From positions 2,205 through 66,204 of the forward strand of contig JAXFOK010000015.1 of the NCBI GenBank assembly GCA_034180415.1: DNA of 64,000 bases. The letters are read 5' to 3'. Source of the DNA: Bdellovibrionota bacterium (GTDB taxonomy: Bacteria; Bdellovibrionota_C; UBA2361; CAKMMH01). Both the position numbers and the translations under genes were made by a program. Positions within the stretch are counted from its first letter, which is position 1; the number at the start of each line of letters is the position of its first letter. A model generated the notes under the pieces. It was not told where the DNA came from and searched no databases. It saw only the letters and a program-made list of their open reading frames with translations. Below, in pieces: positions 12,898 to 46,739 of the stretch.

Positions 12898-14640
12898 ATG
12901 AGCAACTCTTTATTAGAACCTAACAAAGACATATTATCACGTATTGGTCATTACGTAGTAACAGATATTGGCGCAAAGAGAGAAACTAATCAAGATAATT
13001 TTATCGTCGTTTATGGTGAAAATTTCATATACTATGTCGTTTGTGATGGTATGGGCGGAACTGATGGCGGAGAAATCGCTTCCCAAATGACGGTTTCCTA
13101 TATAGATTCTGAATTAAAAGGTAAAAAAATAAGTGACATTGAAGATGTAAAAAAAGTAGTATATGAAGCTAATGAGAGAGTTTTCGAATATGGCATGGAA
13201 CATAAAGAAGTTCAAGGCCTAGGTACAACAATAACAAGTTTACTTGTGATGCCAAAAAGTTCATGGACTTTAAATGTTGGTGATTCAAGAGTTTATAAAA
13301 TCTTTGGCGATACGATAAGTCAAATTACAGAAGATGATACAGTTTTAAATGAGCTTATAAAATCTGGTGTTATATCTCAGGAAAAAGCAAAAAGTCATCC
13401 CATTTCAAATATGCTTACTAAGACTATCGGACAGGGAAAAAGTCTTGAGATTGAAACAACGAGACTCGGATTTTTAGATTATAGGGAAAGATTTATTTTA
13501 TGTTCAGATGGCTTATATAATATGGTTTCTGATAATGAAATCATGGAAATAATAAGCAATAATGATGTTAAAGAAGGTGTCAGAGGGTTAATAAAAAAGG
13601 CTAATGATAATGGTGGAATAGATAATATTACTGCGATGCTTGTAGGTGTATTTAACCAAAGAATATTATCTGATGAAGAAGAAAATAGCTTAATTGAACA
13701 ATCAAAAGCAAGGGTCGTAAAACCACAAGAGATATCAAATAATATAGATTACAATAAGCTTACTCAAAGGTTTGAGGAATTTAAAAATAGTGATGATGGC
13801 AAATATAAGAAATTATGGAATAAAACAGTTACTGACCACAATAACAATGAAAAAGTTGATGTGTCTAGTAGTGATTTAAGAGTATTAAGCCATTTAATTA
13901 TTTTAGTTGTATTGATAGTTTTAGGTTGTATTTTTGTAATTCCTAATAACAGTGTTAAACTTTCTAGGCAAATTCAAGAAGATAAATTTGAGGATAAAAT
14001 AGGCAATATTAAAGTTACAGAAGATGATTATAAGTTTAGGTTGAATTTTGAAGATAAAAAGTATGACGATAATGATAAGTTTATAGATTATTCTAAAAGA
14101 GAAATTATAGCTTATAATGAGATATTGGATATTGTTAAAAAAAGAGAAAGTTTATCAGAAGAAAAATTGTTAAGGCAAAAAAAAATATTATTAGATAGTA
14201 ATAAGGCTATAGAATCACAAATTAATAAATTGTCAGAAAAGATAAATGATATTAGAGAATATAATAACAAGAATTTATTAGATATTGCACGCGAGATATC
14301 AGAAAATGATGAAAATGTTAAAAAATTATCAGATGATTTTTTAAGTTTTTCATATGATATTCTTAATAATGATTTAAATCAAAATGATTACAATAAAATC
14401 AAAGAAGAAAAATTAAATAGGTTATATAAGCAAGTTGAGAGCTATTTTTATGATAAGATTTCTAAATATGAAATTCAAATAAAGTCTATGCAAGATAAAT
14501 TGCTTAGTAATCAATTTAATCTTTCAATTGTTGATTTAAAAATGCAATATGCAAAATTATTAGTTGATAATGAAGAAGAAAAATTAAAAGATTTTGAGGC
14601 AAAAATTAATACATTAAAGCAAAGAGTAAGCAAATCTTAA
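12898..14640 (+). CDS. PP2C-family Ser/Thr phosphatase with a C-terminal TM segment and a long coiled-coil domain
   Basis: N-terminal PPM motifs (YVVCDGMGGTDGGEIAS, ...CSDGLYNMVSDNE..., DNITAMLV). TM helix LSHLIILVVLIVLGCIFVI. The C-terminal about 230 aa is heptad-like. Confidence 0.8.
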   Translation: MSNSLLEPNKDILSRIGHYVVTDIGAKRETNQDNFIVVYGENFIYYVVCDGMGGTDGGEIASQMTVSYIDSELKGKKISDIEDVKKVVYEANERVFEYGMEHKEVQGLGTTITSLLVMPKSSWTLNVGDSRVYKIFGDTISQITEDDTVLNELIKSGVISQEKAKSHPISNMLTKTIGQGKSLEIETTRLGFLDYRERFILCSDGLYNMVSDNEIMEIISNNDVKEGVRGLIKKANDNGGIDNITAMLVGVFNQRILSDEEENSLIEQSKARVVKPQEISNNIDYNKLTQRFEEFKNSDDGKYKKLWNKTVTDHNNNEKVDVSSSDLRVLSHLIILVVLIVLGCIFVIPNNSVKLSRQIQEDKFEDKIGNIKVTEDDYKFRLNFEDKKYDDNDKFIDYSKREIIAYNEILDIVKKRESLSEEKLLRQKKILLDSNKAIESQINKLSEKINDIREYNNKNLLDIAREISENDENVKKLSDDFLSFSYDILNNDLNQNDYNKIKEEKLNRLYKQVESYFYDKISKYEIQIKSMQDKLLSNQFNLSIVDLKMQYAKLLVDNEEEKLKDFEAKINTLKQRVSKS

Positions 14641-16708: not shown

Positions 16709-17050
16709 TTATTTTGAATTATTACTTGCTGCAGCTAGTGCGTCTAATTCACCGTCTGGAGAAACTATCTGAGTTACCCTTATACCAAATTTATCATTTA
16801 CTACTACTGCTTCACCTTGTGCTAATAATTTATTATTAACTCTAATATCTAAAGGTTCTTCTGGAAGTTTATTTAATTCTATAATTGAACCTTTTCTTAA
16901 TTTTATAAGTTTATCAAGAGTGCACTCAACTCTTCCTAGCTCTACAGATACTATGAGTTCTACATCATAAAAGAATTGAAGTGTACCAACTTTATCTTGA
17001 ATTGAAGCTGATTCAACAATATTCTCTTTTTCTTTTTTTTGCTCTTCCAT
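16709..17050 (-). CDS. FliN/SpoA (SctQ C-terminal) domain protein, orphan
   Basis: ELIVSVELGRVECTLDKLIKLRKGSIIELNKLPEEPLDIRVNNKLLAQGEAVVVNDKFGIRVTQI is a clear SpoA/FliN fold signature. 113 aa. No other flagellar or T3SS switch genes are adjacent. Confidence 0.75.
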   Translation of the reverse strand: MEEQKKEKENIVESASIQDKVGTLQFFYDVELIVSVELGRVECTLDKLIKLRKGSIIELNKLPEEPLDIRVNNKLLAQGEAVVVNDKFGIRVTQIVSPDGELDALAAASNNSK

Positions 17051-17235: not shown

Positions 17236-18501
17236 ATGGAACAAATAGCTGGAAAATATAATATTATTAGGTTGTTAGGTAAAGGAGCTACTGGGGAAGT
17301 GTACCTTGTAGAGCATAATGACCTAAAGTTAGAATATGCACTAAAACTTTTGTCAAAGGAAGTTTCAAATAACGATGTGGTCGTAGAAAGATTTATAAAA
17401 GAGGCAAGATTACTAGAAAAATTTTCCCATAAAAATACTGCAAGATTAAGAGATTTTGGAAAAAATGATGATGGCCGTTATTACATGACTACTGATTTTT
17501 GTAAGGGGATTACATTAAGCGAGCTTGTAAAGAAAAGAGGGGCTATTAATTATAATTTAGCTCTTAAAATCATGATTGATATTTTAGATGTTCTATCTTG
17601 CGCACATAAAGAAGGGGTAGTTCATAGGGATATAAAATCTGAAAATGTGATAGTAAATTTTAATGAAAATTTTGATGATTATGATGAGTTAAAAGTGCTT
17701 GATTTTGGTATAGCCAAAATGAAGCAAGATATTAAATTAAATGATACAAAGACCATAGATGGTTCTGCATTAGGGACTCCTCAATATATGGCTCCAGAAC
17801 AAGCAGCTGGTGAACCTAATCTTGATCATAGGATTGATATTTATTCGGCTGGAATTGTTTTATATGAGCTTCTTGCTGGAAAAGTTCCTTTTTTTGGGGA
17901 AACTATAGTTCAAACGCTTTTAATGCATTTAACTCAGCCGATTCCTCCTTTTGATGAATCATTAAACATTCCAGAAGATGTTTCTAATATTGTTAATAAA
18001 GCATTACAAAAAATCCCTAACAATAGATATCAAACTGCTGAAATGTTTATGCAAGATTGTAAAAAGATTTTAAATTGTGAAAACGTTGGGGAAGTTTCAG
18101 GTGATAATGGTGCGTATGTTATAAATGATGAAAAAAAAGAGAAAACGAAAATTCTATGTATTGATGATAATCAGATGATTTTAAATATAATTAGCCATAT
18201 TTTAACAAAAGAGGGATTTGAAGTATTTACTACAAATGATCCGAGTACACTTCATAGTTATTTATTCCAAGAAAGAATAGATTTGTTGATTTCAGATATA
18301 AATATGCCAAGTATTAACGGTAATGATTTGTGTAAAATGTTAAAACAAACCATGCCAAGCCTTAAAATAGCACTTTTTTCGAATATTCCAGAACAAGACT
18401 TAGAAGCGCTTGCAAAAGATGCGTCAGCAGATGCTTGGATTTCAAAAAACGAAAAGCCAAATGTGTGGCTTGAAGGGATATATAAACTACTAGGAAGATA
18501 A
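17236..18501 (+). CDS. Hanks-type Ser/Thr protein kinase fused to a C-terminal response-regulator receiver (REC) domain
   Basis: Kinase motifs are intact: GKGATGEV, ALKLL (VAIK-like Lys), HRDIKSENV, DFG, APE. The C-terminal about 120 aa is KILCIDDNQMILNIISHIL ... DLLISDINMP ... IALFSN (REC with phospho-acceptor Asp). Confidence 0.85.
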   Translation: MEQIAGKYNIIRLLGKGATGEVYLVEHNDLKLEYALKLLSKEVSNNDVVVERFIKEARLLEKFSHKNTARLRDFGKNDDGRYYMTTDFCKGITLSELVKKRGAINYNLALKIMIDILDVLSCAHKEGVVHRDIKSENVIVNFNENFDDYDELKVLDFGIAKMKQDIKLNDTKTIDGSALGTPQYMAPEQAAGEPNLDHRIDIYSAGIVLYELLAGKVPFFGETIVQTLLMHLTQPIPPFDESLNIPEDVSNIVNKALQKIPNNRYQTAEMFMQDCKKILNCENVGEVSGDNGAYVINDEKKEKTKILCIDDNQMILNIISHILTKEGFEVFTTNDPSTLHSYLFQERIDLLISDINMPSINGNDLCKMLKQTMPSLKIALFSNIPEQDLEALAKDASADAWISKNEKPNVWLEGIYKLLGR

Positions 18502-21003: not shown

Positions 21004-21388
21004 AAAATTGACGATGCATCCAAGATTGCGTCGTTATTCGAGAGAGATGCCGTCCTCGCTGTACTTAATAGTACAGCTGTGGGTGCATCCTCTCGAATGC
21101 CTAGCACTCTTGGCGCCTCGTCAATTTTATATATTAAGACGATGCATGTGATGATGCTACGTTCATTTTGAGGGATAAACGGTCCTTGCTGTACTTAATA
21201 GTACAGCTGTGGGAGCATCCTCCCGAATGCCTAGCACTCTTGGCGCCTCGTCAATTTTATATATTAAGACGATGCATGTGATGATGCTACGTTCATTTTG
21301 AGGGATAAACGGTCCTTGCTGTACTAATCGTACAGCTGTGGGAGCATCCTCTCGAATGCCTAGCACTCTTGGTGCCTCGTCAATTTTA
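21004..21388. repeat. Tandem array of three family-A palindromic elements (units about 121 nt)
   Basis: Copy 1 is 21004–21128. Copies 2 and 3 (21129–21249, 21250–21388) form a 121-nt direct repeat (atattaagacgatgcatgtgatgatgc...). Each has a central hairpin gctgtacttaatagtacagc and a 3' module gaatgcctagcactcttggcgcctcgtcaatttt. Termini are inverted complements. The ORF 21163..21408 is a repeat artefact. Confidence 0.8.
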
Positions 21389-21514
21389 TAAAATGGACCT
21401 TTTAACAACCCCTAAAAGGTAAAAGTTTTAATGGGTTGGTGCGTAATTAAAGTTTGCTGTGAAAAATTTCGATATTGAGTATAGGTTGGATTATATTTTT
21501 TTAAGTTTTAAGCT

Positions 21515-22762
21515 ATGAAATTATTAATTATTGATGTTTCAACAGAAGCTCAAGCAAAGTGTGCTAAAAAAATAGAGCCTTTTAATAGAAGTGATGTCGA
21601 AATGCTTGATTTAAAAATCAAGCTTGCAAACGAGCAAACTTATAAAGATATTCTAGAAGGAGCAGATGTTGCAATACTTGGTGCAGGGTTAGGTGAGTCT
21701 GCAATAGTGGTCGCAAGAGAGATTGCAAGCGTGTGCCCTTGGATGAATATTATAATGTTTGTTAAAGAGTCATTATACGGTGGAAGCTCTTTTAGAAGCG
21801 CACATTCAGTGGGCGTAAGAAAAGTTTTTTCTGATAACGCAAGTCCTCTTGATTTCTTGCAAGAACTTGTAGCAATTCACAGTGAATTTAGAAAAGAAGG
21901 TCGAGCCAGGGAAGGTATAGTTGTCGCGGTGAATCATGCCAAGGGAGGCGTCGGAGCAACTTCAATTTGCGCAGCTCTTGCAGAGGTTTGTGGAGTTTAT
22001 AATAAAAGGACACTTCTTTGGGATTTAGATGTCGAGACAAGAGATTTAAGTCGCTCTCTTACTGCAAGTGGAACAGAAGCCAAAGTAGTTTCATCGTGGG
22101 TTAATGGTTCAAGAGAAATTTCAAGAGAATCTTTAAAAGATGCACTTTTACCTATAAGTAATGAAGTTTCAATATTAATTCCACCAGATTGTATGGCTGA
22201 GTCTATGGATTTAGTGTGTCATACAGATAGTATAGCTCTTTGTAGTAGAATTTTAGAGCTTTCAAGAGTGCTTTTTGACGTAATTATTATTGATACTGGT
22301 GGAAGAATGGGACCTGCTACTGGAGCAGTAGTAAGAAATAGTGATAAAACTTTAATTGTTATTGATGATACGATTTTGGGACTAACAGCTGTCGATCTTT
22401 ATTTAAATTTTATTAAGAGTTTAGTTGGAACTCCAGATAGAATTAATTTTTTAATAAATCAATATACTGGAAATCTTCTTACAAAAAATCAGATTGAAGC
22501 TGAGTTAGAACCTATTCATAGGTTAGGACATGAGGTTTGGAGCTTAGATCCAGTGTATATGGACCCAAAAGCTAGCCTTTGGTCAGCAAGTGGTAAGACG
22601 CTTTATAGTTTAGGTAATAGAAATACAAGAGTTGCTCTAGAAAAGATGGCTGTAATTCTAGGACTTACTATTCAACATGGCGTAGTAAAGAGAGAAAACC
22701 AAGCAAATAATAACCAAAAAGAAAAAGGACATAAGTTTTTGAATTTTTTTAATAAAAAATAA
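21515..22762 (+). CDS. tadZ: TadZ/CpaE-type pilus-assembly ATPase (ParA/MinD-like, N-terminal degenerate receiver domain)
   Basis: N-terminal MKLLIIDVSTEAQAK REC-like fold. Deviant Walker A AVNHAKGGVGATSICAALA. 415 aa. Located at the head of the flp operon. Confidence 0.8.
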   Translation: MKLLIIDVSTEAQAKCAKKIEPFNRSDVEMLDLKIKLANEQTYKDILEGADVAILGAGLGESAIVVAREIASVCPWMNIIMFVKESLYGGSSFRSAHSVGVRKVFSDNASPLDFLQELVAIHSEFRKEGRAREGIVVAVNHAKGGVGATSICAALAEVCGVYNKRTLLWDLDVETRDLSRSLTASGTEAKVVSSWVNGSREISRESLKDALLPISNEVSILIPPDCMAESMDLVCHTDSIALCSRILELSRVLFDVIIIDTGGRMGPATGAVVRNSDKTLIVIDDTILGLTAVDLYLNFIKSLVGTPDRINFLINQYTGNLLTKNQIEAELEPIHRLGHEVWSLDPVYMDPKASLWSASGKTLYSLGNRNTRVALEKMAVILGLTIQHGVVKRENQANNNQKEKGHKFLNFFNKK

Positions 22763-22935
22763 TGTTTGTTATTTTTGTTAATATTTGAATCTTTTTTTAA
22801 AAAAAAGAATCTTAATACTTAAATATATGAGGTTTGTATTTGCTGATTTTTTAGTTTTAGTTTAAGTTGTAGTTATAAATAGCTATATTTGTAAACTAAA
22901 AATTTAAATAATATATATATTAAGGAGAAAGTAAA

Positions 22936-23109
22936 ATGTTAAGAATTTTTAGTAAGAAAGAAAAAGGTGCTTCACTCGTTGAGTACGCGTTACTAGTTGC
23001 TTTAATTGCATTAGGATCAATGGCTGCTATGAGATTACTATCAAATAATATTTCAGGTGCATTCTCTCAATCAGGTAGTATATTACAAGATGTAAGTAAA
23101 GCAGGTTAA
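22936..23109 (+). CDS. flp: Flp-family pilin precursor (57 aa), absent from the supplied ORF track
   Basis: MLRIFSKKEKGASLVEYALLVALIALGSMAAMRLLSNNISGAFSQSGSILQDVSKAG carries the Flp signature (G/ASLVEYALLVALIAL: prepilin-peptidase site G|A, conserved E and Y). Strong RBS aaggagaaagtaaaATG. Sits directly upstream of cpaB/tadA/tadB/tadC. Confidence 0.8.
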   Translation: MLRIFSKKEKGASLVEYALLVALIALGSMAAMRLLSNNISGAFSQSGSILQDVSKAG

Positions 23110-23127
23110 TTTATTAAGTATTTTATT

Positions 23128-24039
23128 ATGAAGCCACTTAGTTCTCAACCAGATAGTAATTCTAAGCTAATTTTTTTAGTTGCAATTGTTGTAATGCTTT
23201 TGCTAGGTGGCTTTCTTTTAATTTTTTTCGGATTTAGTAATAAATCTAATAATACCGGACAAAATTTTGATAATCCACAAAGTGAATTGAATGATAATAT
23301 AAATACTAGAGCAGAAAATAATGCAAATGTTGAAAGAACAGTTCAGGTTTTAGTTACAATAAGAGATATTAAAAATGGCGAAAAATTAGATCCTACAATG
23401 TTTAGGAAAGAAACAAGGCCAGAAAATTTTGTTAAACCTGATGATTATAGAGATTTTTCACAGATAGATGGTTTTTTTGCAAAATCAGATATTGGATTTA
23501 GAGAAACTATAGACCCAAATAAAGTATCAAGAAAAAAACCAGTAAATACTATAACGGCTAATATTCCTGAAGGTTACAGAGCTGTTACAATTAATGTTGA
23601 TGTGACAAGTAGTGTAGAAGGTTGGGCAAGAGCAGGAGCGTTTGTTGATGTTGTATGGAATTCAGTGATAAATGGAAAACCAGCTGCTACTGTAATTATT
23701 CAAAATGCAAAAATTTTATCAGCAGAAAGGCAAATTGAGGCTAATCCACAAGAGGGACAGGCTCCTGTTCCTAGTACTGTAACACTTCTTGTGCTTGCGG
23801 ATGATGCAACAAAAATTCATCTTGCAGAAACCACTGGTAAGTTAAGTTTACAGTTAAGAGGGGACGATGCTGAAAAAGGATTTGGGGCAAGAACTTCCCT
23901 TACAATAGATGATTTACTTGATAAGAATAATGGTAAAAAAGATAATAAAAAGTATGATGCTATTGTAAAAATTAAAGGTAAAAATGGTAAAATGGAAAGG
24001 TGGGGATTAAAGGATGGAAGTCTTGTTCTAATTGAGTAA
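23128..24039 (+). CDS. cpaB: CpaB/RcpC-family Flp pilus assembly protein
   Basis: N-terminal TM anchor, then a SAF-like region (VQVLVTIRDIKNGEKLDPTMFRKETRPENFVKPD) and a beta-rich C-terminus, at the canonical position between flp and tadA. Confidence 0.65.
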   Translation: MKPLSSQPDSNSKLIFLVAIVVMLLLGGFLLIFFGFSNKSNNTGQNFDNPQSELNDNINTRAENNANVERTVQVLVTIRDIKNGEKLDPTMFRKETRPENFVKPDDYRDFSQIDGFFAKSDIGFRETIDPNKVSRKKPVNTITANIPEGYRAVTINVDVTSSVEGWARAGAFVDVVWNSVINGKPAATVIIQNAKILSAERQIEANPQEGQAPVPSTVTLLVLADDATKIHLAETTGKLSLQLRGDDAEKGFGARTSLTIDDLLDKNNGKKDNKKYDAIVKIKGKNGKMERWGLKDGSLVLIE

Positions 24040-24057
24040 TTTTAAAAGAAGTTATAA

Positions 24058-25515
24058 ATGGCAAGAAATGAGACTAATGATGATTTAACAAGTTTGTTTT
24101 CTACAAGAAATAAGATGATAAATGAATCATCGCAAGGGGAGAATAATTCGTTAATGCCATCTGTATCTGGTGGAACTTCTTCTCGAGGTATTGCAAAAAC
24201 TAATAAAAATGATTCAAAAGATTATTCTCAAGGAAATGATAGTTTTAAAAAGGAACTTTCAGAGACAGGTAATAGGGTATTAAAAGAAGCAAGAAGTGAG
24301 CTAGGGGAACTTTTAAACAAACAAAAAGAATCTAACAAAGCTATTGATGAGTCAACGATTATTAAAGCTGTAGAAAAGGTTATTGAAAAAAATGAAGTTT
24401 CACTTCCTGACTTAGAAAAGGCTACTATTATTATTCATCTTCAAAAGGATTTGCTTGGTTGGGGAGTTTTACAGCCTCTTATAGATAATCCAGAAGTTAC
24501 AGATATTCACGTTTATGATTATGCTACAGTCGTGCTTCAACGTGGTAAAGTTAGTGAAAGAACTCAGTATCGATGGCCATCCAAACAAGTTTATATAGCA
24601 TTTATTGATAGGCTTCTTTTAAGACTTGGAAAATCACTATCTACTCAGCAACACACGGTTGATGCTGCGCTTCCAAATGGAATAAGAATTTGTGCAATTC
24701 ACGAGAGTGTTTGTGGTTCAAGAGGCCCACTTTTAAGTATTCGTGTACCAAGAGTTAGTAAAGTATCACTTGAAAGTATCGTATCATACCAAATGGCACC
24801 ACCATTAATTGTTAGGTATTTAGCAGCACTTGTAAAATGTGGTATTTGTACATTTATGATAGCAGGAGAAACTGGTACTGGTAAAACGACTATTATGAAA
24901 TGTCTTGCAACTCAATTTGGTGAAACTGAGTCAATCGTAGCTGTTGAAGATACTCCAGAACTTAATTTACAACATGAGTATTTTAGATCCCTTGTATCTC
25001 GTCCACCAAACACCGAGGGAAAAGGTGAAGTTACACTTCAAGAGCATATAAAAACTACTCTTCGTATGACACCAAACAGGGTACTACTTGGTGAAATGAG
25101 AACTCCATTTGCTGCAGAAGCTTTCTTAGAAGGTGTCCAAACAGGTCACGTTGGAATGAGTACAATTCACGCTCGTAATGCTAGAGAAACTCTTACAAGA
25201 CTTGAAGGACTTTTAGGACGTGCTCAACAGTCAGTTTCTACTGAGATTTTAAGGCAGCAAATCGCGCTTGCTGTAGATGTTGTTGTTTGGCTTTTTAGAG
25301 AAAAAGAAACGGGAAAACCAAGAGTAGGGGAAATAATTGAAGTTGGACACTGTGTTGAAGGTGTAATTCAAACGCGTCCTATGTTTTCAATTTTAAAAAC
25401 AGGAAAGGATCCTCTTTGGAGAGTCGACTCTTGGGCAAGTTTCTTTGATGAAGAGCTAGCAGAATACGGAATATTTCTAGGAGATGCGCCTCCTGAGATT
25501 AGTTTAAAAGACTAG
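24058..25515 (+). CDS. tadA: TadA/CpaF pilus-assembly ATPase (T2SS/T4SS secretion ATPase superfamily)
   Basis: Walker A IAGETGTGKTTIMKCL, Asp box, Walker B and His box (GHVGMSTIHA). The N-terminal about 140-aa extension is unusually long. Locally higher GC is typical of a conserved ATPase. Confidence 0.9.
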   Translation: MARNETNDDLTSLFSTRNKMINESSQGENNSLMPSVSGGTSSRGIAKTNKNDSKDYSQGNDSFKKELSETGNRVLKEARSELGELLNKQKESNKAIDESTIIKAVEKVIEKNEVSLPDLEKATIIIHLQKDLLGWGVLQPLIDNPEVTDIHVYDYATVVLQRGKVSERTQYRWPSKQVYIAFIDRLLLRLGKSLSTQQHTVDAALPNGIRICAIHESVCGSRGPLLSIRVPRVSKVSLESIVSYQMAPPLIVRYLAALVKCGICTFMIAGETGTGKTTIMKCLATQFGETESIVAVEDTPELNLQHEYFRSLVSRPPNTEGKGEVTLQEHIKTTLRMTPNRVLLGEMRTPFAAEAFLEGVQTGHVGMSTIHARNARETLTRLEGLLGRAQQSVSTEILRQQIALAVDVVVWLFREKETGKPRVGEIIEVGHCVEGVIQTRPMFSILKTGKDPLWRVDSWASFFDEELAEYGIFLGDAPPEISLKD

Positions 25516-25555
25516 CATAATATATATGTTTTTTAAAAAAAGGTTTTAAGAAAAA

Positions 25556-26485
25556 GTGTCTATTGAGGTTATACTAGGAATAATATTAATTCTTTTGTCA
25601 ATAATTGTCGCTTGTGTGCTATTATTGTCTAATAATAATTCTAGTCATTCAAATTTTAAAAGTTTAAGTTCTCAAAAGAATAACAATGATAATAATTTAG
25701 AAGATATTGATTTTGTAAAAGTAGAAAGAACTAGCAATGGAAAATATACTTTAAGACAAAAAATGATATATGCAAATTGGAAATTTCCTCCAATCCTATT
25801 TAATATGTTTAGGTTTTCATTAGCAATTTTATGCTTTATGATAGCAAAGACCTATTTTAAGATTTTTTTATCTACTATTATTGCCTTTTTAGCTTTTAAC
25901 TTTGCAAATGGTTTTTTAAACAGGGCAATAAAGAAAAGATTCGATGCGTTTGATAAAGACTATCCAACATTTTTACAAACAATAGTAAGTTTATTAAAAT
26001 CTGGTATGAATGTACTTACTGCTATAGATTCAGCATCTGAGGGGCTAGAAGATACGTCACTTTTAAAAAGTGAAGTTAAGGTCATGATGGAAAGATTAAG
26101 AGCAGGAGTCGGTGAAGAAAAAGCTATTGGAAATTTTGGAGCAACAATTGATCATCCAGAAATTGAATTATTTATCCAAACTATAATTTTAGGAAAAAGC
26201 CTAGGTGGTTCTTTATCTATGACCCTTGATAGGCTTGCAGAACAAGTAAGAAAAAGACAATATTTTAGAGGCTCAGCAGTTGCTTCTATAGCACAGCAAA
26301 AAGGATCTTTATGGGTTATTTTATATTTATTATCAGGTTTAATTATTACAATTGGATGTAAAGCTCCAGATTTATTTGCTGTTGGATTGCATAGCAATGG
26401 TGGTAGAATGGTCTTGGAAATAGGAATATGTATTATATTGCTTGGAATATTTTGGATTAAGAAAGTTATAAATATTAAGGTATAA
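25556..26485 (+). CDS. tadB: TadB (GspF-like inner-membrane platform protein)
   Basis: T2SSF domain (PTFLQTIVSLLKSGMNVLTAIDSASEGL ... IQTIILGKSLGGSLSMTLDRLAEQVRKR) with flanking TM helices. GTG start. Confidence 0.75.
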   Translation: MSIEVILGIILILLSIIVACVLLLSNNNSSHSNFKSLSSQKNNNDNNLEDIDFVKVERTSNGKYTLRQKMIYANWKFPPILFNMFRFSLAILCFMIAKTYFKIFLSTIIAFLAFNFANGFLNRAIKKRFDAFDKDYPTFLQTIVSLLKSGMNVLTAIDSASEGLEDTSLLKSEVKVMMERLRAGVGEEKAIGNFGATIDHPEIELFIQTIILGKSLGGSLSMTLDRLAEQVRKRQYFRGSAVASIAQQKGSLWVILYLLSGLIITIGCKAPDLFAVGLHSNGGRMVLEIGICIILLGIFWIKKVINIKV

Positions 26486-27346
26486 ATGAATTTATTAATT
26501 GGTTTTATCATAATTTTTGCGATTATAACTTTTGTGTTATTTGTAGTAATTGTTTATTCGAATAAGAAAAATCAAGAAAAATCTACTCCTAAATATTTAT
26601 CAAATTCTTCTAAAAAAAATGTAGCAAAAAATAATACTAAATCAAAGAATGGTAAAGATGAAAGTTTAGAATCACTTTTTTATAGAGCTGGAATCTTTGA
26701 TGAAAAAGACAAGGCGGCTTTTAATAGGAAAAAAGTGCTTTATCCATTAATTTTTGGAATTATAGGAGCCATATTAGGGATTTATTATGGAGGATATTCA
26801 CTTTTTCTAATGCCTACCTTAGGTGCATATCTTGGTTTAAAATTTCCAGGAAGAATACTAAATAAAAGAATAAAAGAAAGAGATGAAGATATCTTATACT
26901 ATTTACCACTTGTAATAGAGCAATTAGTTGTAGGAGTAAGTAGCGCACTTGATATAGGCCCATGTATAGCTTATGTCGTCGATATGGCAGAAAAAAGAGG
27001 AACACATAATCCTGTCACAATTCTTTTAAAACAAGTACAAATTTTAGTTAGATTTGGTGCATCATTAGATGACGCACTTGTAGATGTTGGTAAGCAATCA
27101 GGTCATAATGAACTTAAAAATAGCTTTTTACAACTTTCACAGGTTACAAAGCATGGTGGTGAAATTACGAAACAATTACAAGATCTTGGAACAACAGTTA
27201 CAAGACAACGTGAGATTATAATTGATGAACGTATAAAAAGATTGGAATTAAAAGCAACAGGCCCTGTATTTTTAGTATTTGCCGGCCATATGGCTATATT
27301 ATTAGCATTCTTATTTATGGGGCTAGCAAAATCTCTTAGTAATTAA
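26486..27346 (+). CDS. tadC: TadC (second GspF-like platform protein)
   Basis: T2SSF-like region (ILYYLPLVIEQLVVGVSSALDIGPCIAYVVDMAEK ... QVQILVRFGASLDDALVDVG) plus TM helices. The start abuts the tadB stop. Confidence 0.75.
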   Translation: MNLLIGFIIIFAIITFVLFVVIVYSNKKNQEKSTPKYLSNSSKKNVAKNNTKSKNGKDESLESLFYRAGIFDEKDKAAFNRKKVLYPLIFGIIGAILGIYYGGYSLFLMPTLGAYLGLKFPGRILNKRIKERDEDILYYLPLVIEQLVVGVSSALDIGPCIAYVVDMAEKRGTHNPVTILLKQVQILVRFGASLDDALVDVGKQSGHNELKNSFLQLSQVTKHGGEITKQLQDLGTTVTRQREIIIDERIKRLELKATGPVFLVFAGHMAILLAFLFMGLAKSLSN

Positions 27347-27411
27347 ATAGAACAATGTTATTGTTTTATTTAGATCTAAATAAAATTTATTAAAAATCCG
27401 ACATAATAGGC

Positions 27412-29496
27412 ATGAAGAAATTTCAGATTCAAGGGCAAGATTTTGTATTAGCACTTTTTGTGCTATCAATTACCGCAATGCTTGTAATACCACTTCCTAC
27501 AAGTATGCTTGATTTCTTGCTTGTTATTAACATTTCATTTTCATTGCTTCTTTTACTTGCTGGATTATATATGCCAAATGCGTTGGCATTAATTTCTTTT
27601 CCTTCACTTCTTTTATTAACAACACTTTTTAGATTAGGTTTAAATGTAGCATCTACAAGATTAATTTTGAGCCAAGGAGATGCAGGCCATGTTATTGAGG
27701 CTTTCGGTACATTCTTAATTAGAGGTGAAGTAACAATTGGTGTTATTATATTTTTAATAATAACAATTGTAAATTTTATAGTTATCGCAAAAGGTGCAAA
27801 TCGTGTATCAGAGATTACAGCAAGATTTTCACTAGAATCGCTTCCTGGAAAACAAATGGCAATAGACTCTGATCTTCGTTCAGGAGTCATTGATGTTAAT
27901 CAAGCTAGAAAAAGAAGAGATGACTTAAGAAAAGAATCACAGCTTTATGCTGCTATGGACGGAGCGATGAAATTTATTCAAGGTGATGCAATTGCGGGCT
28001 TCTTTATAACACTTACAAATATTATAGGTGGTTTGTATATAAGTTTAAGAGGTGGAATGAGCCTTGGTGAAGCTGTAGAAACTTATACAACGTTAACTGT
28101 AGGTGATGGATTAGTTAGTCAAATTCCTGCGCTTTTAATATCAATATGCGCTGGTATCGTTGTTACAAGAGTTAGCTCAGGTGAAAATTCAACACTTGGT
28201 AAAGAACTTCAAGGACAACTTCTTAGTAGTCCAAGTATTATAATTTTTACAGGTTCTGTACTATTTTTCTTTGCTATACTCCCAGGACTTCCTGCATTAC
28301 AATTTATAAGTGTTGGTACGTTCTTAATAAGTGTTGGTTTATATTTAAATTACAAAAAAAGAGAAAGTACAAGAAATGTGGAGTTTCTTCCAATATCAGT
28401 TCTAAAGGCAAATCGAGAATTGTTAGAAAGCGATAATAGTAAAATACAAAATGTATTTCAAATATTTATAGATAAAGAGTTTGGAAGTTACGTAAATGAT
28501 AACTCACTTTCTATTTTACAGAAATGTAATGAGTATAAGGAAAATTTTAAAAAAATGACAGGTTTCGAGTTTCCTCAATTTAAATTTGTCATAAAAAATG
28601 AAATATTAAAAAATGCATTTAAAGTTTATAAATTGAACACGCTTGTCGTAGAATCTAGTTTTAAAGATGACATGATATATTTAAATATTAATAAATCTGA
28701 GCTTCCAATTTTGGGATTAAAAGATTTTGTTGAGGATTATCATCCTATATATGGAAATAAACTTTATGGCGTTATTAAAAATACATATACAAGTTTGTTA
28801 TGTGAAGAAACGGATTTAATGTATTATGATAAAATCGATTGGATTTTATTAAATATTGCAAGTTTTTGCATTGATAATCCAATAGAGTTTTTTAGCATTT
28901 CGGATATTACAAAAGTGTTGAAAGATATAGAAAAAGATTATCCAGAGATAATAAAAGATTTGTTTTCTATACCCAAAGTTAATAGTGCAAAAATTTTCAA
29001 AGTATATGCTGAGCTCATGAGACAAGAGATATTTTATATATCACATAAAGAAATTTTAGAAGGTATTATTTCATATTTTAATGGTTATAATGTATCTGAC
29101 GAATCTGATTTTGATGTATTTAATATTGTAAGTTATATAAGGCAAAGTAAAAAATTACATGTTACGTATAATTCAATTTATAAAGATAAAAGAATAAAAC
29201 TTTGTAGTATTTCAGATGAACTTCAAGAAACTTTTGAAGAAATGATACCACAAGTTTATGAGGGAAGTGTTAATTTAGATTTAAAAGATTTTGGGGTAAT
29301 TAAGAATAATATTGTGGCACTTCAAAGACCATATTTAGAAAAAGGTGTAACAAGCTTTTCGATAGTTAGTTCTAAAGAGTTAATACCTGTTATATATAGT
29401 GTACTTAAGATTTTTCAATTAAAGATTAATATAGTAGAATTTGATGAGTTAACATCTGATTTAAAAATAGAACATATTGGAATTTGGAGAAAATGA
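27412..29496 (+). CDS. FlhA/SctV-family (FHIPEP) type-III export-gate protein paralog, encoded at the 3' end of the tad operon
   Basis: The N-terminal 330 aa align almost residue-by-residue with the FlhA membrane domain (LLLTTLFRLGLNVASTRLIL, ITARFSLESLPGKQMAIDSDL, MDGAMKFIQGDAIAG, TVGDGLVSQIPALLISICAGIVVTRV). The C-terminal cytoplasmic domain is divergent but retains an FlhA-like stretch (KENFKKMTGFEFPQFKFVIKN, cf. RKKFAQDMGFLPPVVHIRDN). Confidence 0.85.
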   Translation: MKKFQIQGQDFVLALFVLSITAMLVIPLPTSMLDFLLVINISFSLLLLLAGLYMPNALALISFPSLLLLTTLFRLGLNVASTRLILSQGDAGHVIEAFGTFLIRGEVTIGVIIFLIITIVNFIVIAKGANRVSEITARFSLESLPGKQMAIDSDLRSGVIDVNQARKRRDDLRKESQLYAAMDGAMKFIQGDAIAGFFITLTNIIGGLYISLRGGMSLGEAVETYTTLTVGDGLVSQIPALLISICAGIVVTRVSSGENSTLGKELQGQLLSSPSIIIFTGSVLFFFAILPGLPALQFISVGTFLISVGLYLNYKKRESTRNVEFLPISVLKANRELLESDNSKIQNVFQIFIDKEFGSYVNDNSLSILQKCNEYKENFKKMTGFEFPQFKFVIKNEILKNAFKVYKLNTLVVESSFKDDMIYLNINKSELPILGLKDFVEDYHPIYGNKLYGVIKNTYTSLLCEETDLMYYDKIDWILLNIASFCIDNPIEFFSISDITKVLKDIEKDYPEIIKDLFSIPKVNSAKIFKVYAELMRQEIFYISHKEILEGIISYFNGYNVSDESDFDVFNIVSYIRQSKKLHVTYNSIYKDKRIKLCSISDELQETFEEMIPQVYEGSVNLDLKDFGVIKNNIVALQRPYLEKGVTSFSIVSSKELIPVIYSVLKIFQLKINIVEFDELTSDLKIEHIGIWRK

Positions 29497-29497
29497 T

Positions 29498-31828
29498 ATG
29501 GCTGATAATAATAATAGTTTAATAATTATTAATTCTATAAATGAGCTTTATAAAATAGAGTCTAGTATAGCTATTACAAATAGTTCTGAAAGTTTTAAAG
29601 CTGTCGAGATTAGTACAGGAAGAAGTGTGATTTTATCTGTATTAAAAAGAAAATTTAACGTTTATTTAGATCCTAAAGAAATCTCACAATTTTTAGATAG
29701 ACTTAATAAGATTCAAACTTTTGGAAGTTCGCTTTCTTCATTAATTAGTTTTGGTGTTGATAAGGATGGAGTAGGGTATTCGGTATGTGCTATTTCCTCG
29801 GTTAACTCGGTCTTATCTGGAACTATCAACTATGGTGAGGCAACTAGACGTTTAGAAGCTGTTTTGCAGATTCTTATGAAAATGCATAAAGCAGATATAG
29901 CTTGTGGTGATATATGTAATGATTCATTTTTTATAAGTAGAGAAGGGAATATCGGATTATTAGCTATAAATGGGACTTACCCTAGAAAAAGTGATGAAAA
30001 CTTAACAAACAGTCATTATGCACTTCCTAATATTCATGAACCAATATCAATATTAAGTGATATCTATAGATTAGGAATACTTAGCTATAAATTATTTTTA
30101 AATGATTATGATGCATATCCTTTTGATGAAAATAATAATTATATTCAATTAATTTCTTTAAATTGTGATATACCAAGTTATATCGATTTAGCAATAAAAA
30201 CATGTTTAAGTGTAAATCCAGAGGGAAGATTTAGTAATGCTGAAGAGCTTTTTAATTATATTAAATCAGAGCGAGAAAAAGATTCATCAAACGATAACTC
30301 CTTAACTTCTATAAATCCTACAAATGATGAGTTTTCAAAAGTTAAGGTGCTTAATGAAATAGCACTTAGAGAAGAAGTAAATAGTAAAAATAAAAAGATG
30401 AAGGCTACATTAGGCATTGTGGGAGTAGTCTTAATTGTATTTTTTGTGATTATCTTTTTAAGCCAAAATCGAGGAAGAGGTAATAATGGTGTATTAAATA
30501 TGAGAAGAAACACCCAAACAAGTGAAAGCCAGTTAAGAGAGCAAGAAGAAAAATTAAAAAGAATATACGATAGTGAAGATCCGCTAATGTATGTTGCAAT
30601 GGTTAATATGGCAAATAAAGCCTTAAATCCTCAACAAAGAAAATTAGTAGAAAAATATATTGTAAAAAGATTTAAAAATTATCAATATGATAATCTTGTA
30701 GTTATATTAGAAGATTTTTTATCAAGTATAGTTGGTAATGAGATTCCAGAGTTTTATGAAAAATTATTACTTGCTCTTGATAAAAAATATCCGATTGAGA
30801 AAAGGGGAGTTATTTTTAAAGAGCTTTCTAAAAACAATAAAAGTTTAATTGTCGATTTAGCAATAGCTTTATCGTTAGATGATAATAATGAAAAAAGTTA
30901 TAGAGATGTTTTTGTAAGTTTTCTTGATGATGAGTTTAAAAAAGATATTCAGAGGAGATCTTTTGATGCACTATTAATTGCAGAATACTTCTCATGGCAA
31001 AAATATGAGAGCTTACTAAAAGAAAAACTTACAAAATTATCTGATGAAGATTTAGTATGGATTGTTCCAATTTTTGTTAAAAGAAATGATAAATACCTTG
31101 AAAATGTTATCGATTTAATTACAAAAAGACATTTACTTGATGATGTACAGTCAAGCTTTTTATCGCTTATTAATGAATTAAATCCTCCAAAAGAAATTAA
31201 GGATATCTTATTAAAAGCTAGTACATCTCAGATTACACAAAATGACATTCAAGTAGTTTCAAATTGGATTAATATTAATAAAGAAAAAATATTATATGTG
31301 ATGATATTAGCGTTAAAAACAGATATTTCGCTTAAAAGAGAAATATTTGATATATTTTCAGTAACTAGAGTTCAAGATGAGTTAATTAATAAATATGTCA
31401 AATTTGTTAAAGAAAATTTATGGAATAATAGAGGTGAGCTTACTACTTTGATACCATATTTATTAAAATCAAAAGATTATTCTGAGGATAAACTATTAAA
31501 TGCTATTAAATATAGTATAAAGAAATTAAGTAGTTCGGATAAAAGTAAAATATTAACAGAACTTGTTGAAATCGCTGATGATAAAATTAAAACAATTATT
31601 TTTGAAAATTTCTATGAAGATTTAGGAGTAGGGGTCTTAGTAAATTATCTTTCTTATGATGATAAAAATATTAAGAAACTTGCACTAAAAGGATTAAAGG
31701 AATCAGGTATTGATGACATCATTATCTCAAATCTAATTATTGAAAAGTATGATGAAGAAGATGATGACGAAATAAGAAATATGTATAAATCAAATTTCTG
31801 GTTTATAAGAAAAAGAGAATTAGAATAA
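29498..31828 (+). CDS. Membrane pseudokinase: N-terminal degenerate protein-kinase-like domain, TM helix, C-terminal helical-repeat (HEAT/ARM-like) domain
   Basis: The kinase fold is recognisable (YKIESSIAI..., HKADIACGDICNDSFFI in place of HRDLKxxN, ING in place of DFG, ...SDIYRLGILSYKLF) but G-loop, HRD and DFG are degenerate. TM segment ATLGIVGVVLIVFFVIIFL. The start sits 1 nt after the FHIPEP stop (tgatATGg). The track start 29477 is in-frame upstream, but the coupled ATG at 29498 is preferred. Confidence 0.5.
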   Translation: MADNNNSLIIINSINELYKIESSIAITNSSESFKAVEISTGRSVILSVLKRKFNVYLDPKEISQFLDRLNKIQTFGSSLSSLISFGVDKDGVGYSVCAISSVNSVLSGTINYGEATRRLEAVLQILMKMHKADIACGDICNDSFFISREGNIGLLAINGTYPRKSDENLTNSHYALPNIHEPISILSDIYRLGILSYKLFLNDYDAYPFDENNNYIQLISLNCDIPSYIDLAIKTCLSVNPEGRFSNAEELFNYIKSEREKDSSNDNSLTSINPTNDEFSKVKVLNEIALREEVNSKNKKMKATLGIVGVVLIVFFVIIFLSQNRGRGNNGVLNMRRNTQTSESQLREQEEKLKRIYDSEDPLMYVAMVNMANKALNPQQRKLVEKYIVKRFKNYQYDNLVVILEDFLSSIVGNEIPEFYEKLLLALDKKYPIEKRGVIFKELSKNNKSLIVDLAIALSLDDNNEKSYRDVFVSFLDDEFKKDIQRRSFDALLIAEYFSWQKYESLLKEKLTKLSDEDLVWIVPIFVKRNDKYLENVIDLITKRHLLDDVQSSFLSLINELNPPKEIKDILLKASTSQITQNDIQVVSNWININKEKILYVMILALKTDISLKREIFDIFSVTRVQDELINKYVKFVKENLWNNRGELTTLIPYLLKSKDYSEDKLLNAIKYSIKKLSSSDKSKILTELVEIADDKIKTIIFENFYEDLGVGVLVNYLSYDDKNIKKLALKGLKESGIDDIIISNLIIEKYDEEDDDEIRNMYKSNFWFIRKRELE

Positions 31829-46556: not shown

Positions 46557-46739
46557 ATAAAACCAAATCCTTTTATTAATATTTTGAAAAACAATTATAC
46601 AAATTCTATTTTATCATAAAAGAATATAGAAAAATACTGTAGATCTAGTAAAAATAGCTACCTAGTAAGATAGGTTAAAATTAGCATTTATGCTTATGTG
46701 CATCATGTTTTATAATAATTGAATTAAATATTTAAAGAT

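Follow-up and report, generated by a model that had tools for sequence, protein, structure and literature searches.

In type III secretion systems (T3SS), the export gate SctV is a nonameric ring coupled to the proton-motive force and provides a cytoplasmic docking platform; SctV and the related FlhA depend on SctRSTU or FliPQR-FlhB, and we know of no system in which they are the protein-conducting channel itself. Threonine phosphorylation is known to control envelope machines, as with PpkA/PppA/Fha1 for the T6SS of Pseudomonas aeruginosa and with MviN (Rv3910) and FhaA in Mycobacterium tuberculosis. The phylum Bdellovibrionota is best known for its predatory members. The Kil pilus of Myxococcus xanthus is Tad-like and recruits a needleless T3SS* that is required for tip-dependent killing and lysis (PMC12075869, PMC12428579). 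The tad/kil genes of M. xanthus are dispersed over several loci, where secretin and peptidase genes are not necessarily adjacent (PMC8460266), and the tad genes of Bdellovibrio bacteriovorus are dispersed as well (bioRxiv 10.64898/2026.07.08.737194).

The window analyzed here, a stretch of 64,000 nucleotides from a Bdellovibrionota bacterium, contains at positions 21515-31828 eight co-directional genes in the order tadZ – flp – cpaB – tadA – tadB – tadC – FHIPEP – pseudokinase. This is the order proposed in a first-pass annotation of the DNA, and when its domain calls were checked with Pfam and NCBIfam profiles, all of them were correct. The NCBI accessions of the window proteins run consecutively. 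The first gene (21515..22762, + strand, as are all features below) encodes a TadZ/CpaE-like ATPase of the ParA/MinD type (Pfam AAA_31 3.3e-12, CbiA 1.7e-7) whose N-terminus carries a receiver-like extension and whose Walker A motif (AKGGVGATS) is atypical; whereas B. bacteriovorus has a TadZA fusion, TadZ is here separate from TadA and keeps its N-terminal domain (bioRxiv 10.64898/2026.07.08.737194). The Flp prepilin of 57 aa (22936..23109; Flp_Fap 1.4e-8, 34.8 bits, exceeding the gathering cut-off of 32.2) displays, as read directly from the sequence, a canonical processing site KEKG↓ASLVEYALLV, the only Flp-type prepilin motif within the window. It is followed by the periplasmic alignment protein CpaB/RcpC (23128..24039; TIGR03177 5.2e-37, 127.5 bits, cut-off 71; RcpC 3.9e-18; SAF 3.4e-7), by a secretion ATPase of the TadA/CpaF type (24058..25515; T2SSE 3.2e-33, TIGR03819 3.7e-64), which in contrast to KilF from M. 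xanthus has no FHA domain, and by the inner-membrane platform proteins TadB (25556..26485; T2SSF 1.2e-12) and TadC (26486..27346; T2SSF 3.2e-7), the tadB stop codon directly adjoining the tadC start. The seventh gene (27412..29496) encodes a full-length, divergent SctV/FlhA-family export-gate homologue of 694 aa that matches the FHIPEP model (3.3e-156) from position 1 to 656 of 657, and the eighth (29498..31828) a bitopic membrane pseudokinase of 776 aa, recognized by structure and motif analysis.

The locus shares with canonical Tad/Flp systems (Aggregatibacter tad, Caulobacter cpa) the G/XXXXEY site of Flp, TadZ, RcpC/CpaB, a TadB/TadC platform, a single TadA ATPase and the usual gene order, but differs from them in lacking rcpA, tadV and tadD-G and in having two extra conserved genes after tadC. 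Among the ORFs of at least 100 aa in the window, no secretin, prepilin peptidase, TadE/F/G or SctRSTU/N/J/C/D was detected at the Pfam level, and neither a secretin, a prepilin peptidase, minor pilins nor other non-flagellar T3SS parts were found within about 10 kb of any locus inspected. The first-pass annotation was right that the locus lacks secretin, TadV and minor pilins, but this is in itself unremarkable because tad/kil genes are dispersed in both B. bacteriovorus and M. xanthus. Clearly, the Flp prepilin needs a TadV/CpaA-type peptidase encoded outside the window.

In Bdellovibrionota/Oligoflexia MAGs, the identical eight-gene order was found at 10 of 10 independent loci inspected; the full order is present in the window, L001, L003, L004, L005/L006, L007, L086, L169, and L170, and L008 is a 2-kb contig on which only tadC and the FHIPEP gene are visible. 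Identity among syntenic loci goes down to 39% for the FHIPEP protein and to 20% for the pseudokinase, TadA identity is 63-84%, and TadZ identity amounts to 53% in L007, 69% in L003, 74% in L005/L006, and 83% in L001, in each of these relatives exceeding that of the FHIPEP protein. In every relative examined, the FHIPEP and pseudokinase genes come after tadC, and they were not encountered in unrelated contexts, while the flanks differ from locus to locus (yacG/nifS/ruvB, ahpC/S9 peptidase/tig-clpPX-lon, or a GAF-PAS kinase). Among the best 120 FHIPEP matches, at least 37 contigs appear to bear both genes, judging from FHIPEP and pseudokinase matches on contigs of identical size, and one such pair has the neighboring locus tags RL417_2634 and RL417_2635. 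In GTDB genomes, none of 77 other FlhA/SctV loci had tad genes within 10 kb. As all 10 related loci keep the eight-gene block and none of the 77 other FHIPEP loci has it, it is more than a chance neighborhood, and conserved synteny lends good support to a functional link of the Tad core with the FHIPEP protein and the pseudokinase. That the three parts are unrelated and were simply never separated is hardly credible: all carriers do belong to one phylum-level lineage, and the intergenic gaps before the FHIPEP gene reach 160 nt, but the parts occur in the same order and on the same strand in all ten loci, and the block persists despite rearrangement of both flanks and a divergence so deep that pseudokinase identity is 20-26%.

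The first-pass annotation had also taken a spacing of 1 nt between the last two genes as a sign of translational coupling. In the window this gap is real: the FHIPEP gene stops with TGA at 29494-29496 and the pseudokinase starts with ATG at 29498, a start backed by agreement of the N-termini of homologues, with a GGAG motif 11 nt upstream. Such tight spacing, of 1-2 nt, is found in the low-GC subclade only (the window, L001, L005), whereas the gap measures 9 to 118 nt in the remaining lineages; the adjacency of both genes holds throughout, tight coupling only in that subclade. In the window, 65 nt with a weak AT-rich hairpin of 13 bp separate tadC from the FHIPEP gene; across loci this distance is 2-160 nt, and such gaps may contain internal promoters or attenuators. 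The tad core, the FHIPEP gene and the pseudokinase gene are presumably co-transcribed.

When the FHIPEP protein was compared with curated models, it scored 472 bits against FlhA (TIGR01398), 300 bits short of the equivalog cut-off of 772, and 521 bits against SctV, for which the cut-off is 692; members of its clade, as seen in the window and in L086, fall under both cut-offs. Sequence comparison indicates that these proteins form a distinct Tad-linked clade, which is monophyletic with 100% neighbor-joining bootstrap and falls on the side of SctV with a bootstrap of only 49%. That the FHIPEP gene is the flagellar flhA of the organism, lying beside tad by chance because flagellar genes are scattered, is very unlikely. 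Some clade members are titled 'flagellar biosynthesis protein FlhA' in database records, and flagellar genes are found near the locus, upstream of the FHIPEP gene at about 10 kb (fliN) and upstream of the window start at about 5-7.4 kb (flgK and flgL). However, FliN, FlgK and FlgL of this organism exceed the NCBIfam cut-offs and are canonical flagellar proteins, whereas FlhA scores within the clade are 472-493 bits, compared with 774-817 for FlhAs of other phyla. The clade also groups apart from FlhA in the tree, the GC-richer lineages have no flagellar gene within 10 kb of the locus, a strict linkage to a pseudokinase is not known for flhA, and the subclade of the window has lost three C-domain residues that are universal otherwise (R658I, E605Q, G468D), which could reflect further functional drift.

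As in SctV/FlhA gates (PDB 7alw, 7amy, 6wa6, 7osl), the FHIPEP protein shows the full-length architecture with charged membrane motifs (ARF, PGKQMAID.D, MDGAMKF, GDAIAG), and a linker and four-subdomain cytoplasmic domain whose predicted model (pLDDT 85-90) has the SctV_C fold, with TM scores of 0.72-0.83 to CdsV, FlhA, InvA, EscV, and MxiA. It differs from them in forming its own clade under both thresholds, in a fast-evolving C-domain of only 10-16% identity, and in its gene company, as at the loci examined it is always encoded after tadC and before the pseudokinase and not with SctRSTU or FlhB-FliPQR. Membrane-domain conservation is 0.74 in the Tad-linked clade versus 0.64 in classical proteins, and 79 of 101 universally conserved FHIPEP columns are kept in the window protein. 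The retained columns suggest classical gate function, and together with the HMM scores, which favor SctV over FlhA, they would suit an sctV of a reduced, needleless T3SS whose other parts are encoded elsewhere in the genome and which was placed in the tad operon for joint expression. Similar clusters exist in other Bdellovibrionota (L020, with sigma factor - SctJ - SctQ-like - short FHIPEP), and Kil and T3SS* of M. xanthus are separate, co-localizing complexes (PMC12075869). We nevertheless regard this possibility as unlikely, though worth keeping in mind: SctRSTU/N/J/D genes were found within 10 kb at 0 of 10 loci, the clade falls under the SctV equivalog cut-off with a C-domain that evolves fast, sctV usually accompanies sctU/RST whereas this gene, despite deep divergence, has kept its place after tadC and before the pseudokinase, and co-occurrence of Kil and T3SS* is apparently restricted to Cystobacterineae (review, PMC12428579). 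A non-exporting, ion-conducting sensor or regulator, or a membrane scaffold, which together with the pseudokinase controls extension and retraction of the Tad pilus, might explain why constraint is strongest on the membrane domain, which holds the proton-pathway residues, while the substrate-docking C-domain drifts, why the gene is tightly paired, at 1 nt, with that of a signaling-type protein, and why partner export-channel genes are absent nearby. Such a protein is without known precedent, and a pure ion sensor would have no need of the complete four-subdomain cytoplasmic fold, which makes this explanation doubtful.

In the case of the pseudokinase, the Pfam scan gave no match, with weak kinase matches only. 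Its cytoplasmic domain has a Hanks kinase fold without the catalytic Lys, Asn and DFG-Asp, and is followed by a single TM helix near residues 304-322 and an all-alpha solenoid of about 440 aa that is predicted to be periplasmic. The family comprises 158 cluster representatives at E<=1e-30, all of about 770-890 aa, and the pseudokinase state is family-wide. Structural neighbors include the T6SS kinase PpkA and the MviN/Rv3910 pseudokinase (5hnv and 3uqc were recovered). Upstream of the block, the window encodes a PP2C-type Ser/Thr phosphatase of 580 aa (12898..14640; Pfam PP2C_2 1.9e-12) and a Ser/Thr protein kinase of 421 aa fused to a receiver domain (17236..18501; Pkinase 8.9e-47, Response_reg 7.1e-19), which is kept beside the locus in L001 with 83% identity and is likely the partner kinase of the pseudokinase. 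In relatives, a membrane-anchored Ser/Thr kinase (STK) with intact VAIK/HRD/DFG motifs is encoded immediately upstream of tadZ, the order PP2C - (FHA/unknown) - STK - tadZ is present in four lineages (L003, L086, L169, L170), and a PP2C gene directly precedes the block in the GC-richer relatives; an FHA protein accompanies phosphatase and kinase only sometimes. This resembles PpkA/PppA/Fha1 and MviN/FhaA, where a membrane Hanks-type kinase or pseudokinase with an extracytoplasmic sensor occurs with PP2C and FHA proteins beside the regulated machine, and also Kil, where FHA-type Ser/Thr-phospho signaling is associated with the pilus genes. In contrast to PpkA and MviN, the extracytoplasmic solenoid belongs to no Pfam family, and the regulated machine would be the Tad/FHIPEP system and not a T6SS or peptidoglycan synthesis.

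On balance, we consider it probable that these genes make up the core operon of a Tad-like pilus/secretion machine (type IVc) with two permanently gained, lineage-specific components. The first would be a neofunctionalized paralogue descended from the T3SS export gate SctV/FlhA, the second the bitopic pseudokinase with its alpha-solenoid domain. The machine would be positioned by TadZ, and TadA, TadB, TadC and CpaB would assemble the Flp filament, which would pass through a secretin whose gene lies elsewhere. Beside or around the inner-membrane platform, where it would be physically coupled to the Tad machine, the SctV-like protein may energize or dock, providing an ion-driven gating or substrate-docking step, for example the loading of an effector or tip protein, as has been proposed for the T3SS* recruited by Kil. 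A difficulty for this reading is that genes for SctRSTU or FliPQR-FlhB, on which known gates of this family depend, were not seen within 10 kb at any of the loci. The pseudokinase might sense an envelope or contact cue via its periplasmic solenoid and act in the cytoplasm as a phosphorylation-dependent scaffold for the neighboring Ser/Thr kinase, PP2C phosphatase and FHA module, thereby switching assembly on or off.

In the Kil/T3SS* pair, a component derived from a T3SS is functionally linked to a Tad-like machine (Seef 2021, PMC8460266; Herrou 2025, PMC12075869), and by analogy we favor the view that the Tad-like machine here has the SctV-like gate and the pseudokinase as its dedicated partners. 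Myxococcus encodes an entire T3SS basal-body cluster (mxan_2434-2464) separately from kil, whereas here a single FHIPEP gene lies inside the tad operon and is joined by a dedicated pseudokinase. In the literature searched, no earlier description of a tad–FHIPEP–pseudokinase arrangement was found. The parallel with Myxococcus extends to predation in so far as Bdellovibrionota are mainly known for predators; all carriers are uncultured MAGs, and predation is therefore assumed for them from phylum membership only. The conserved block of this lineage points to a hybrid or coupled envelope machine of a kind not described before, which may have a role in prey contact.

The eight genes of the block, all on the plus strand between 21515 and 31828 in a window with a G+C content of about 30%, were examined with Pfam and NCBIfam HMMs, and the layout and domain calls of the first-pass annotation, a Tad/Flp pilus operon whose last two genes encode an FlhA/SctV-family export gate (FHIPEP) and a pseudokinase, were right throughout. 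The block begins with a gene for a TadZ/CpaE-like ParA/MinD ATPase (21515–22762; AAA_31, 3.3e-12; also CbiA), followed by a 57-aa Flp prepilin (22936–23109; Flp_Fap, 34.8 bits, above the 32.2 cut-off) in which a processing site of the G/XXXXEY type, KEKG/ASLVEYALLV, was read from the sequence, CpaB/RcpC (23128–24039; TIGR03177, 127.5 bits, cut-off 71), a TadA-type ATPase (24058–25515; T2SSE, 3.2e-33), TadB (25556–26485; T2SSF) and TadC (26486–27346; T2SSF), so that Flp prepilin, TadA, TadB, TadC, TadZ and RcpC/CpaB of a Tad/Flp (type IVc) system are all present. The full-length FHIPEP protein is encoded at 27412–29496 (PF00771, 3.3e-156, model positions 1–656 of 657) and a 776-aa protein without a Pfam family, the pseudokinase, at 29498–31828. 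Intergenic gaps within the block are 0–173 nt. The FHIPEP stop codon TGA (29494–29496) is followed by a single base and then by the pseudokinase ATG (29498), with GGAG 11 nt upstream, which bears out the 1-nt spacing described earlier, and in the 65 nt between tadC and the FHIPEP gene no consensus terminator was seen, the one structure there being a weak hairpin rich in AT (-9.2 kcal/mol, z -1.7). The eight genes are probably co-transcribed.

A Pfam scan, extended to the other ORFs of at least 100 aa, detected neither the secretin RcpA/CpaC, the peptidase TadV/CpaA nor TadE/F/G in the 64-kb window, as the first-pass annotation had stated, and no core genes of a non-flagellar system for type III secretion (T3SS) were detected there in the same scan. 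At the level of loci, secretin, prepilin peptidase and minor pilins were also not found in 10 kb on either side of the window, nor within 10 kb in nine related loci, and a motif scan of the window revealed one Flp-type prepilin and no second one. Since a Flp prepilin and CpaB are present, the peptidase and the secretin are presumably encoded elsewhere.

Among the matches listed, the closest homologues of the FHIPEP protein form a tight low-GC group with 99–66% identity and the next ones, at about 43%, are many proteins from metagenome-assembled genomes (MAGs) labelled Bdellovibrionota, Oligoflexia or 'Deltaproteobacteria'. The DNA around nine FHIPEP relatives was compared with the window. These loci cover FHIPEP identities of 76% (L001), 67% (L005/L006), 43% (L003 and L004), about 40% (L169 and L170) and 39% (L007 and L086, the latter on the complete 2.28-Mb MAG chromosome CP129486.1), and include a 2-kb contig (L008) on which tadC and the FHIPEP gene alone are visible. 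In every relative locus of sufficient span the gene order of the block is identical. Orthology of the pseudokinase gene holds throughout; over its whole length the window protein aligns with those of L003 (26% identity, E 1e-76) and L004 (23% identity, E 2e-52). At least 37 contigs of the same size are common to the best 120 FHIPEP and the best 107 pseudokinase matches, a fingerprint of co-occurrence rather than a direct observation, and one FHIPEP/pseudokinase pair carries the adjacent locus tags RL417_2634 and RL417_2635. By comparison, tad genes were found within 10 kb in none of 77 other FlhA/SctV loci among the matches listed in GTDB species genomes, which span Vibrio, Bradyrhizobium, Myxococcales, Planctomycetota and others. 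The first-pass annotation had named unrelated contexts of the FHIPEP and pseudokinase genes in relatives as evidence against its idea of a hybrid or regulated pilus-export system; the relatives keep the block, and the idea was not refuted.

The genes flanking the block differ between subclades. In the window and in L001, yacG, nifS and ruvB are located 3' of the block, and in the GC-richer lineages (L003, L086, L169, L170) a thioredoxin-like AhpC/TSA-Redoxin gene, a convergent S9 peptidase gene and tig-clpP-clpX-lon are found at this place. An ahpC-like gene is also located 3' of the block in L004, followed by divergent content including a GAF-PAS kinase, and because of this recurrence the small redoxin gene may be a ninth member of the module. 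As the flanks vary, the conserved unit is the eight-gene block and not its neighborhood, and mere inertia of gene order, as an explanation for the block, is contradicted by these rearrangements and is very improbable. Across L001–L007, identity to the window proteins is 53–83% for TadZ and 63–84% for TadA, and 39–76% for FHIPEP and 20–57% for the pseudokinase; the last two are the fastest-evolving members of the block. The evidence is comparative throughout and all carriers are MAGs.

In the four GC-richer lineages three genes are located directly 5' of the block. The first encodes a PP2C phosphatase and the third a Ser/Thr kinase whose catalytic motifs are intact, both with a membrane anchor; the product of the second is small and, in L086, FHA-like. 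Their equivalents in the window are a PP2C gene (12898–14640, plus strand) and a gene for a Ser/Thr kinase-receiver fusion (17236–18501, plus strand; Pkinase, 8.9e-47; Response_reg, 7.1e-19), a Hanks-type kinase with a C-terminal receiver where the relatives have the membrane-anchored kinase. Fusions of Hanks-type kinases to response-regulator receivers are uncommon. Genes for an active kinase, PP2C and an FHA reader, together with that for the pseudokinase, thus belong to a conserved neighborhood.

Several other features of the window and its flanks were recorded. An intergenic tandem repeat 5' of tadZ (21010–21400) consists of 2.6–3 copies of a 130-nt unit with 96% identity; as RNA, one unit folds into a three-way branched structure with a long closing stem and a U-tract after it (-44.9 kcal/mol, z -4.05, reached by 0 of 200 shuffles). 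Rfam gave no match for it up to E<=1. Neither the corresponding spacer of L001, the 76% relative, nor any other part of the window contains the repeat, which could consist of small-RNA genes in tandem, be a regulatory leader or be a mobile repeat of small size; an 81-aa ORF on the minus strand (21163–21408) is an artefact of it. A 769-aa protein (18693–21002, plus strand) without a Pfam family has a signal peptide, a Cys-rich composition, a basic C-terminal tail and about eight repeats of C-S-D-x-K-D-N-D-G-D-G-x-I-D-x-x-D-P-x-C that resemble thrombospondin-type-3 calcium-binding repeats. This secreted protein was rejected as a module member because it is shared with the closest relative L001 only, in which its counterpart is split into ORFs of 493 and 269 aa. 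No Pfam family was assigned at E<=0.001 to the consecutive ORFs at 45411–48457 (minus strand; 381, 251 and 291 aa) or at 57634–59646 (plus strand; 230, 131 and 134 aa; a 101-aa ORF at 58956–59261 was left out). At 51276–56181 a gene for a Fic-domain protein (plus strand) adjoins one for a 1175-aa pyruvate:ferredoxin oxidoreductase (minus strand), the latter hinting at an anaerobic or microaerophilic life of this low-GC Bdellovibrionota lineage. Downstream, the 10 kb next to the window contain housekeeping genes, and the window proteins are also found, identical, on a 158-kb ENA metagenome contig.

To which family the FHIPEP protein belongs was assessed with the curated equivalog models. Against the model for SctV, the non-flagellar T3SS version (TIGR01399, cut-off 692.25), the proteins from the window and L086 reached 521.3 and 551.6 bits, and genuine SctVs in the sample 805–911 bits. 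Against the model for FlhA, the flagellar version (TIGR01398, cut-off 772.1), they reached 471.9 and 492.9 bits, and genuine FlhAs from other phyla 774–817 bits. The window protein is identical to MDD7473638.1, from NCBI MAGs labelled Bdellovibrionota, and database labels for its relatives are generic or 'FlhA'. That it is the organism's flagellar FlhA is improbable, as it falls 300 bits under the FlhA cut-off whereas the FliN, FlgK and FlgL of the same organism pass theirs: an isolated fliN gene is located 10 kb 5' of the FHIPEP gene (16709–17050, minus strand; TIGR02480, 93.7 bits, cut-off 84), and flgK and flgL, which pass their NCBIfam equivalogs, at 432–3107 of the upstream flanking locus L171, about 5–7.4 kb before the window start. 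It follows that the organism has canonical flagellar genes and that these are scattered in its genome. Flagellar genes occur close to the block in the window lineage only, none being found near the locus in other lineages, and the segment with fliN and the kinase-receiver gene is inverted in L001 relative to the window. The FliN-like gene was also considered as a SctQ-type component and rejected, as its product passes the FliN equivalog, the gene is absent from the loci of other lineages and its segment is, as stated, inverted in L001. Separately, FHIPEPs from two MAGs labelled Myxococcales (L013 and L024) pass the FlhA equivalog with 813–817 bits and have fliN nearby; Myxococcales are usually regarded as non-flagellated, and this could be a binning or labelling effect or reflect flagellated Myxococcota lineages.

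Neighbor-joining, a plain distance method, was applied to 71 FHIPEP proteins and gathers the Tad-linked ones in one clade with 100% bootstrap; the clade is placed, with 49% support only, on the side of the tree with the SctVs (Rhizobiales Rhc, Myxococcaceae T3SS*-like). In 68 classical FlhA/SctV proteins, 101 alignment columns reach a conservation of 90% or more; 122 clade members keep 79 of these at this level, among them the charged membrane-domain motifs ARF, PGKQMAID.D, MDGAMKF and GDAIAG. The mean majority frequency in the membrane domain is 0.74 within the clade versus 0.64 in the classical set, with 34 clade-specific fixed substitutions, and the cytoplasmic domain, at 0.51, is as variable within the clade as in the cross-phylum classical set (0.53). 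Three otherwise universal residues are replaced in the window subclade (R658I, E605Q and G468D). In an AlphaFold model of the protein (mean pLDDT 79.5; C-domain 85–90) the cytoplasmic domain is predicted to adopt the complete SctV_C/FlhA_C fold, which matched CdsV, the FlhAs of H. pylori and Vibrio, InvA, EscV, MxiA and YscV in Foldseek with TM values of 0.72–0.83 at 10–16% identity. The Tad-linked FHIPEP is thus a homologue of the export gate that is intact and under strong constraint, belongs to neither curated family and has a diverged docking domain.

SctR/S/T/U, SctN, SctJ and other T3SS core Pfam families were not detected within 10 kb in 10 loci. The FHIPEP protein might serve as SctV in a reduced T3SS with its remaining genes at another place in the genome, the location in the tad operon then serving co-regulation, and this minority explanation is plausible because a reduced T3SS-like cluster exists in another Bdellovibrionota lineage. 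The cluster is located at 6646–13746 of L020, from a Lake Mendota MAG, with genes in the order sigma-70 factor, SctJ/FliF-family, unassigned, FliN/SctQ-C-like, unassigned, FHIPEP, TPR, unassigned and receiver/HisKA. Its FHIPEP belongs to a second divergent group within Bdellovibrionota, of short proteins of 620–638 aa (L019, L020, L069), near which no tad genes were found.

For the 776-aa product of the last gene of the block, an AlphaFold model (pLDDT 90.2) predicts a bilobal kinase fold at the N-terminus (residues about 10–265), a disordered linker, a single hydrophobic helix (304–322) and an all-alpha solenoid of 440 residues. Of 70 family members compared, 55 have Trp in place of the beta3 Lys (the window protein has Ser), all carry Ser or Thr instead of the catalytic-loop Asn, and Asp is missing from the DFG position in every one; HRD reads CGD, its Asp being present in 64. 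Residues with a structural role persist, namely the invariant Asp188, Arg244 and a motif resembling APE. The bilobal fold devoid of catalytic residues indicates that the whole family consists of pseudokinases. Exactly one strongly hydrophobic segment is present in 66 of the 70 proteins, and Lys and Arg residues near it number 3.9 on the N-terminal side versus 2.1 on the other (higher in 52 proteins, lower in 8), so that the pseudokinase domain is predicted to be cytoplasmic and the solenoid periplasmic. Fold searches, dominated by kinase matches, assigned no structural relative to the solenoid.

A profile search of 1.84 billion representatives of clusters formed at 50% identity revealed at least 158 family proteins at E<=1e-30, nearly all of 770–890 aa, which makes the pseudokinase a new and sizeable family. 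A word-indexed search with the window protein retrieved 7 relatives only, and the family became visible through the profile search and a search with the L003 orthologue. Every named member is a MAG 'hypothetical protein', including MDD7473639.1, which is identical to the window protein and comes next after the FHIPEP MDD7473638.1. When metagenomes were scanned with an alignment of 20 pseudokinases, the motif selected, [STA]D[VI][FY][AS]LGVL[GA], was a generic kinase motif, and 78 of the 80 loci listed with it encode ordinary kinases, L089 and L090 being family members. No description of this family was found in the literature searched, including comparative genomics of Bdellovibrionota, and none of a tad/flp operon with an FHIPEP gene inside it, including recent work on the Tad system of B. 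bacteriovorus.

The two extra genes have co-travelled with tadC across deep divergence, and comparison of sequences suggests that the SctV-like protein and the pseudokinase are most likely dedicated partners of the Tad machine. SctV and FlhA assemble in the inner membrane as a ring of nine subunits, which links substrate handling to proton flow and carries a docking ring on the cytoplasmic side. By analogy, the FHIPEP protein would oligomerize beside or around the TadB/TadC platform and could supply a gating step coupled to the proton-motive force or a cargo-docking step; its constrained membrane domain and fast-changing docking domain fit a conserved energy-coupling core facing new partners. 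A role of FHIPEP as a non-exporting ion sensor or scaffold seems unlikely. In a partnership with the Tad machine, the solenoid of the pseudokinase might read a periplasmic or contact signal and its cytoplasmic part might act as a phospho-dependent scaffold for the Ser/Thr kinase, PP2C and FHA proteins, a role resembling those of PpkA/PppA/Fha1 and mycobacterial MviN/FhaA, with which structural matches concur. PpkA/PppA/Fha1 act for the type VI secretion system and MviN/FhaA in mycobacteria. The family is put forward as a candidate contact or envelope sensor for Tad-type machines. We tentatively consider it possible that FHIPEP acts in a Tad-like machine without other T3SS parts, as a nonameric proton-driven ring serving as gate, energizer or docking platform of a type IV filament system under control of the periplasm-sensing pseudokinase. 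The arrangement is read as a Tad-like system into which a gate derived from a T3SS and a pseudokinase as sensor are built; if FHIPEP works there in the absence of further T3SS parts, it would be the first to function outside a T3SS, and the system a genuine T4F/T3SS chimera and nearly a new category of hybrid machine.

The nearest biological parallel is found in Myxococcus xanthus, whose Tad-like Kil pilus enlists a needleless T3SS (T3SS*) with genes of its own at a separate site; killing and lysis that depend on the tip require this T3SS*, on which the pilus thus relies for part of its killing (PMC12075869, PMC8460266). According to a 2025 review, the co-occurrence of Kil and T3SS* is seemingly restricted to Cystobacterineae; the review leaves open whether the two join in a single complex (PMC12428579). 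Here, by contrast, a single T3SS-derived gene takes the place of a complete needleless basal body, TadA has no FHA domain whereas the M. xanthus ATPase is fused to one, and a role in prey killing is demonstrated for the M. xanthus apparatus. The likeness is one of functional analogy and not of membership.

The prevailing view, to our knowledge, is that FlhA/SctV proteins are core parts of type III secretion machines and of no other system, and an FHIPEP clade hard-wired into a Tad operon, apart from export-channel genes, challenges this view. Retention of this single T3SS-derived gene beside a Tad platform points to SctV as a candidate interface between the two machines, for which the block offers a minimal test system, and this bears on bacterial predation, namely on how the Kil and T3SS* machines communicate.
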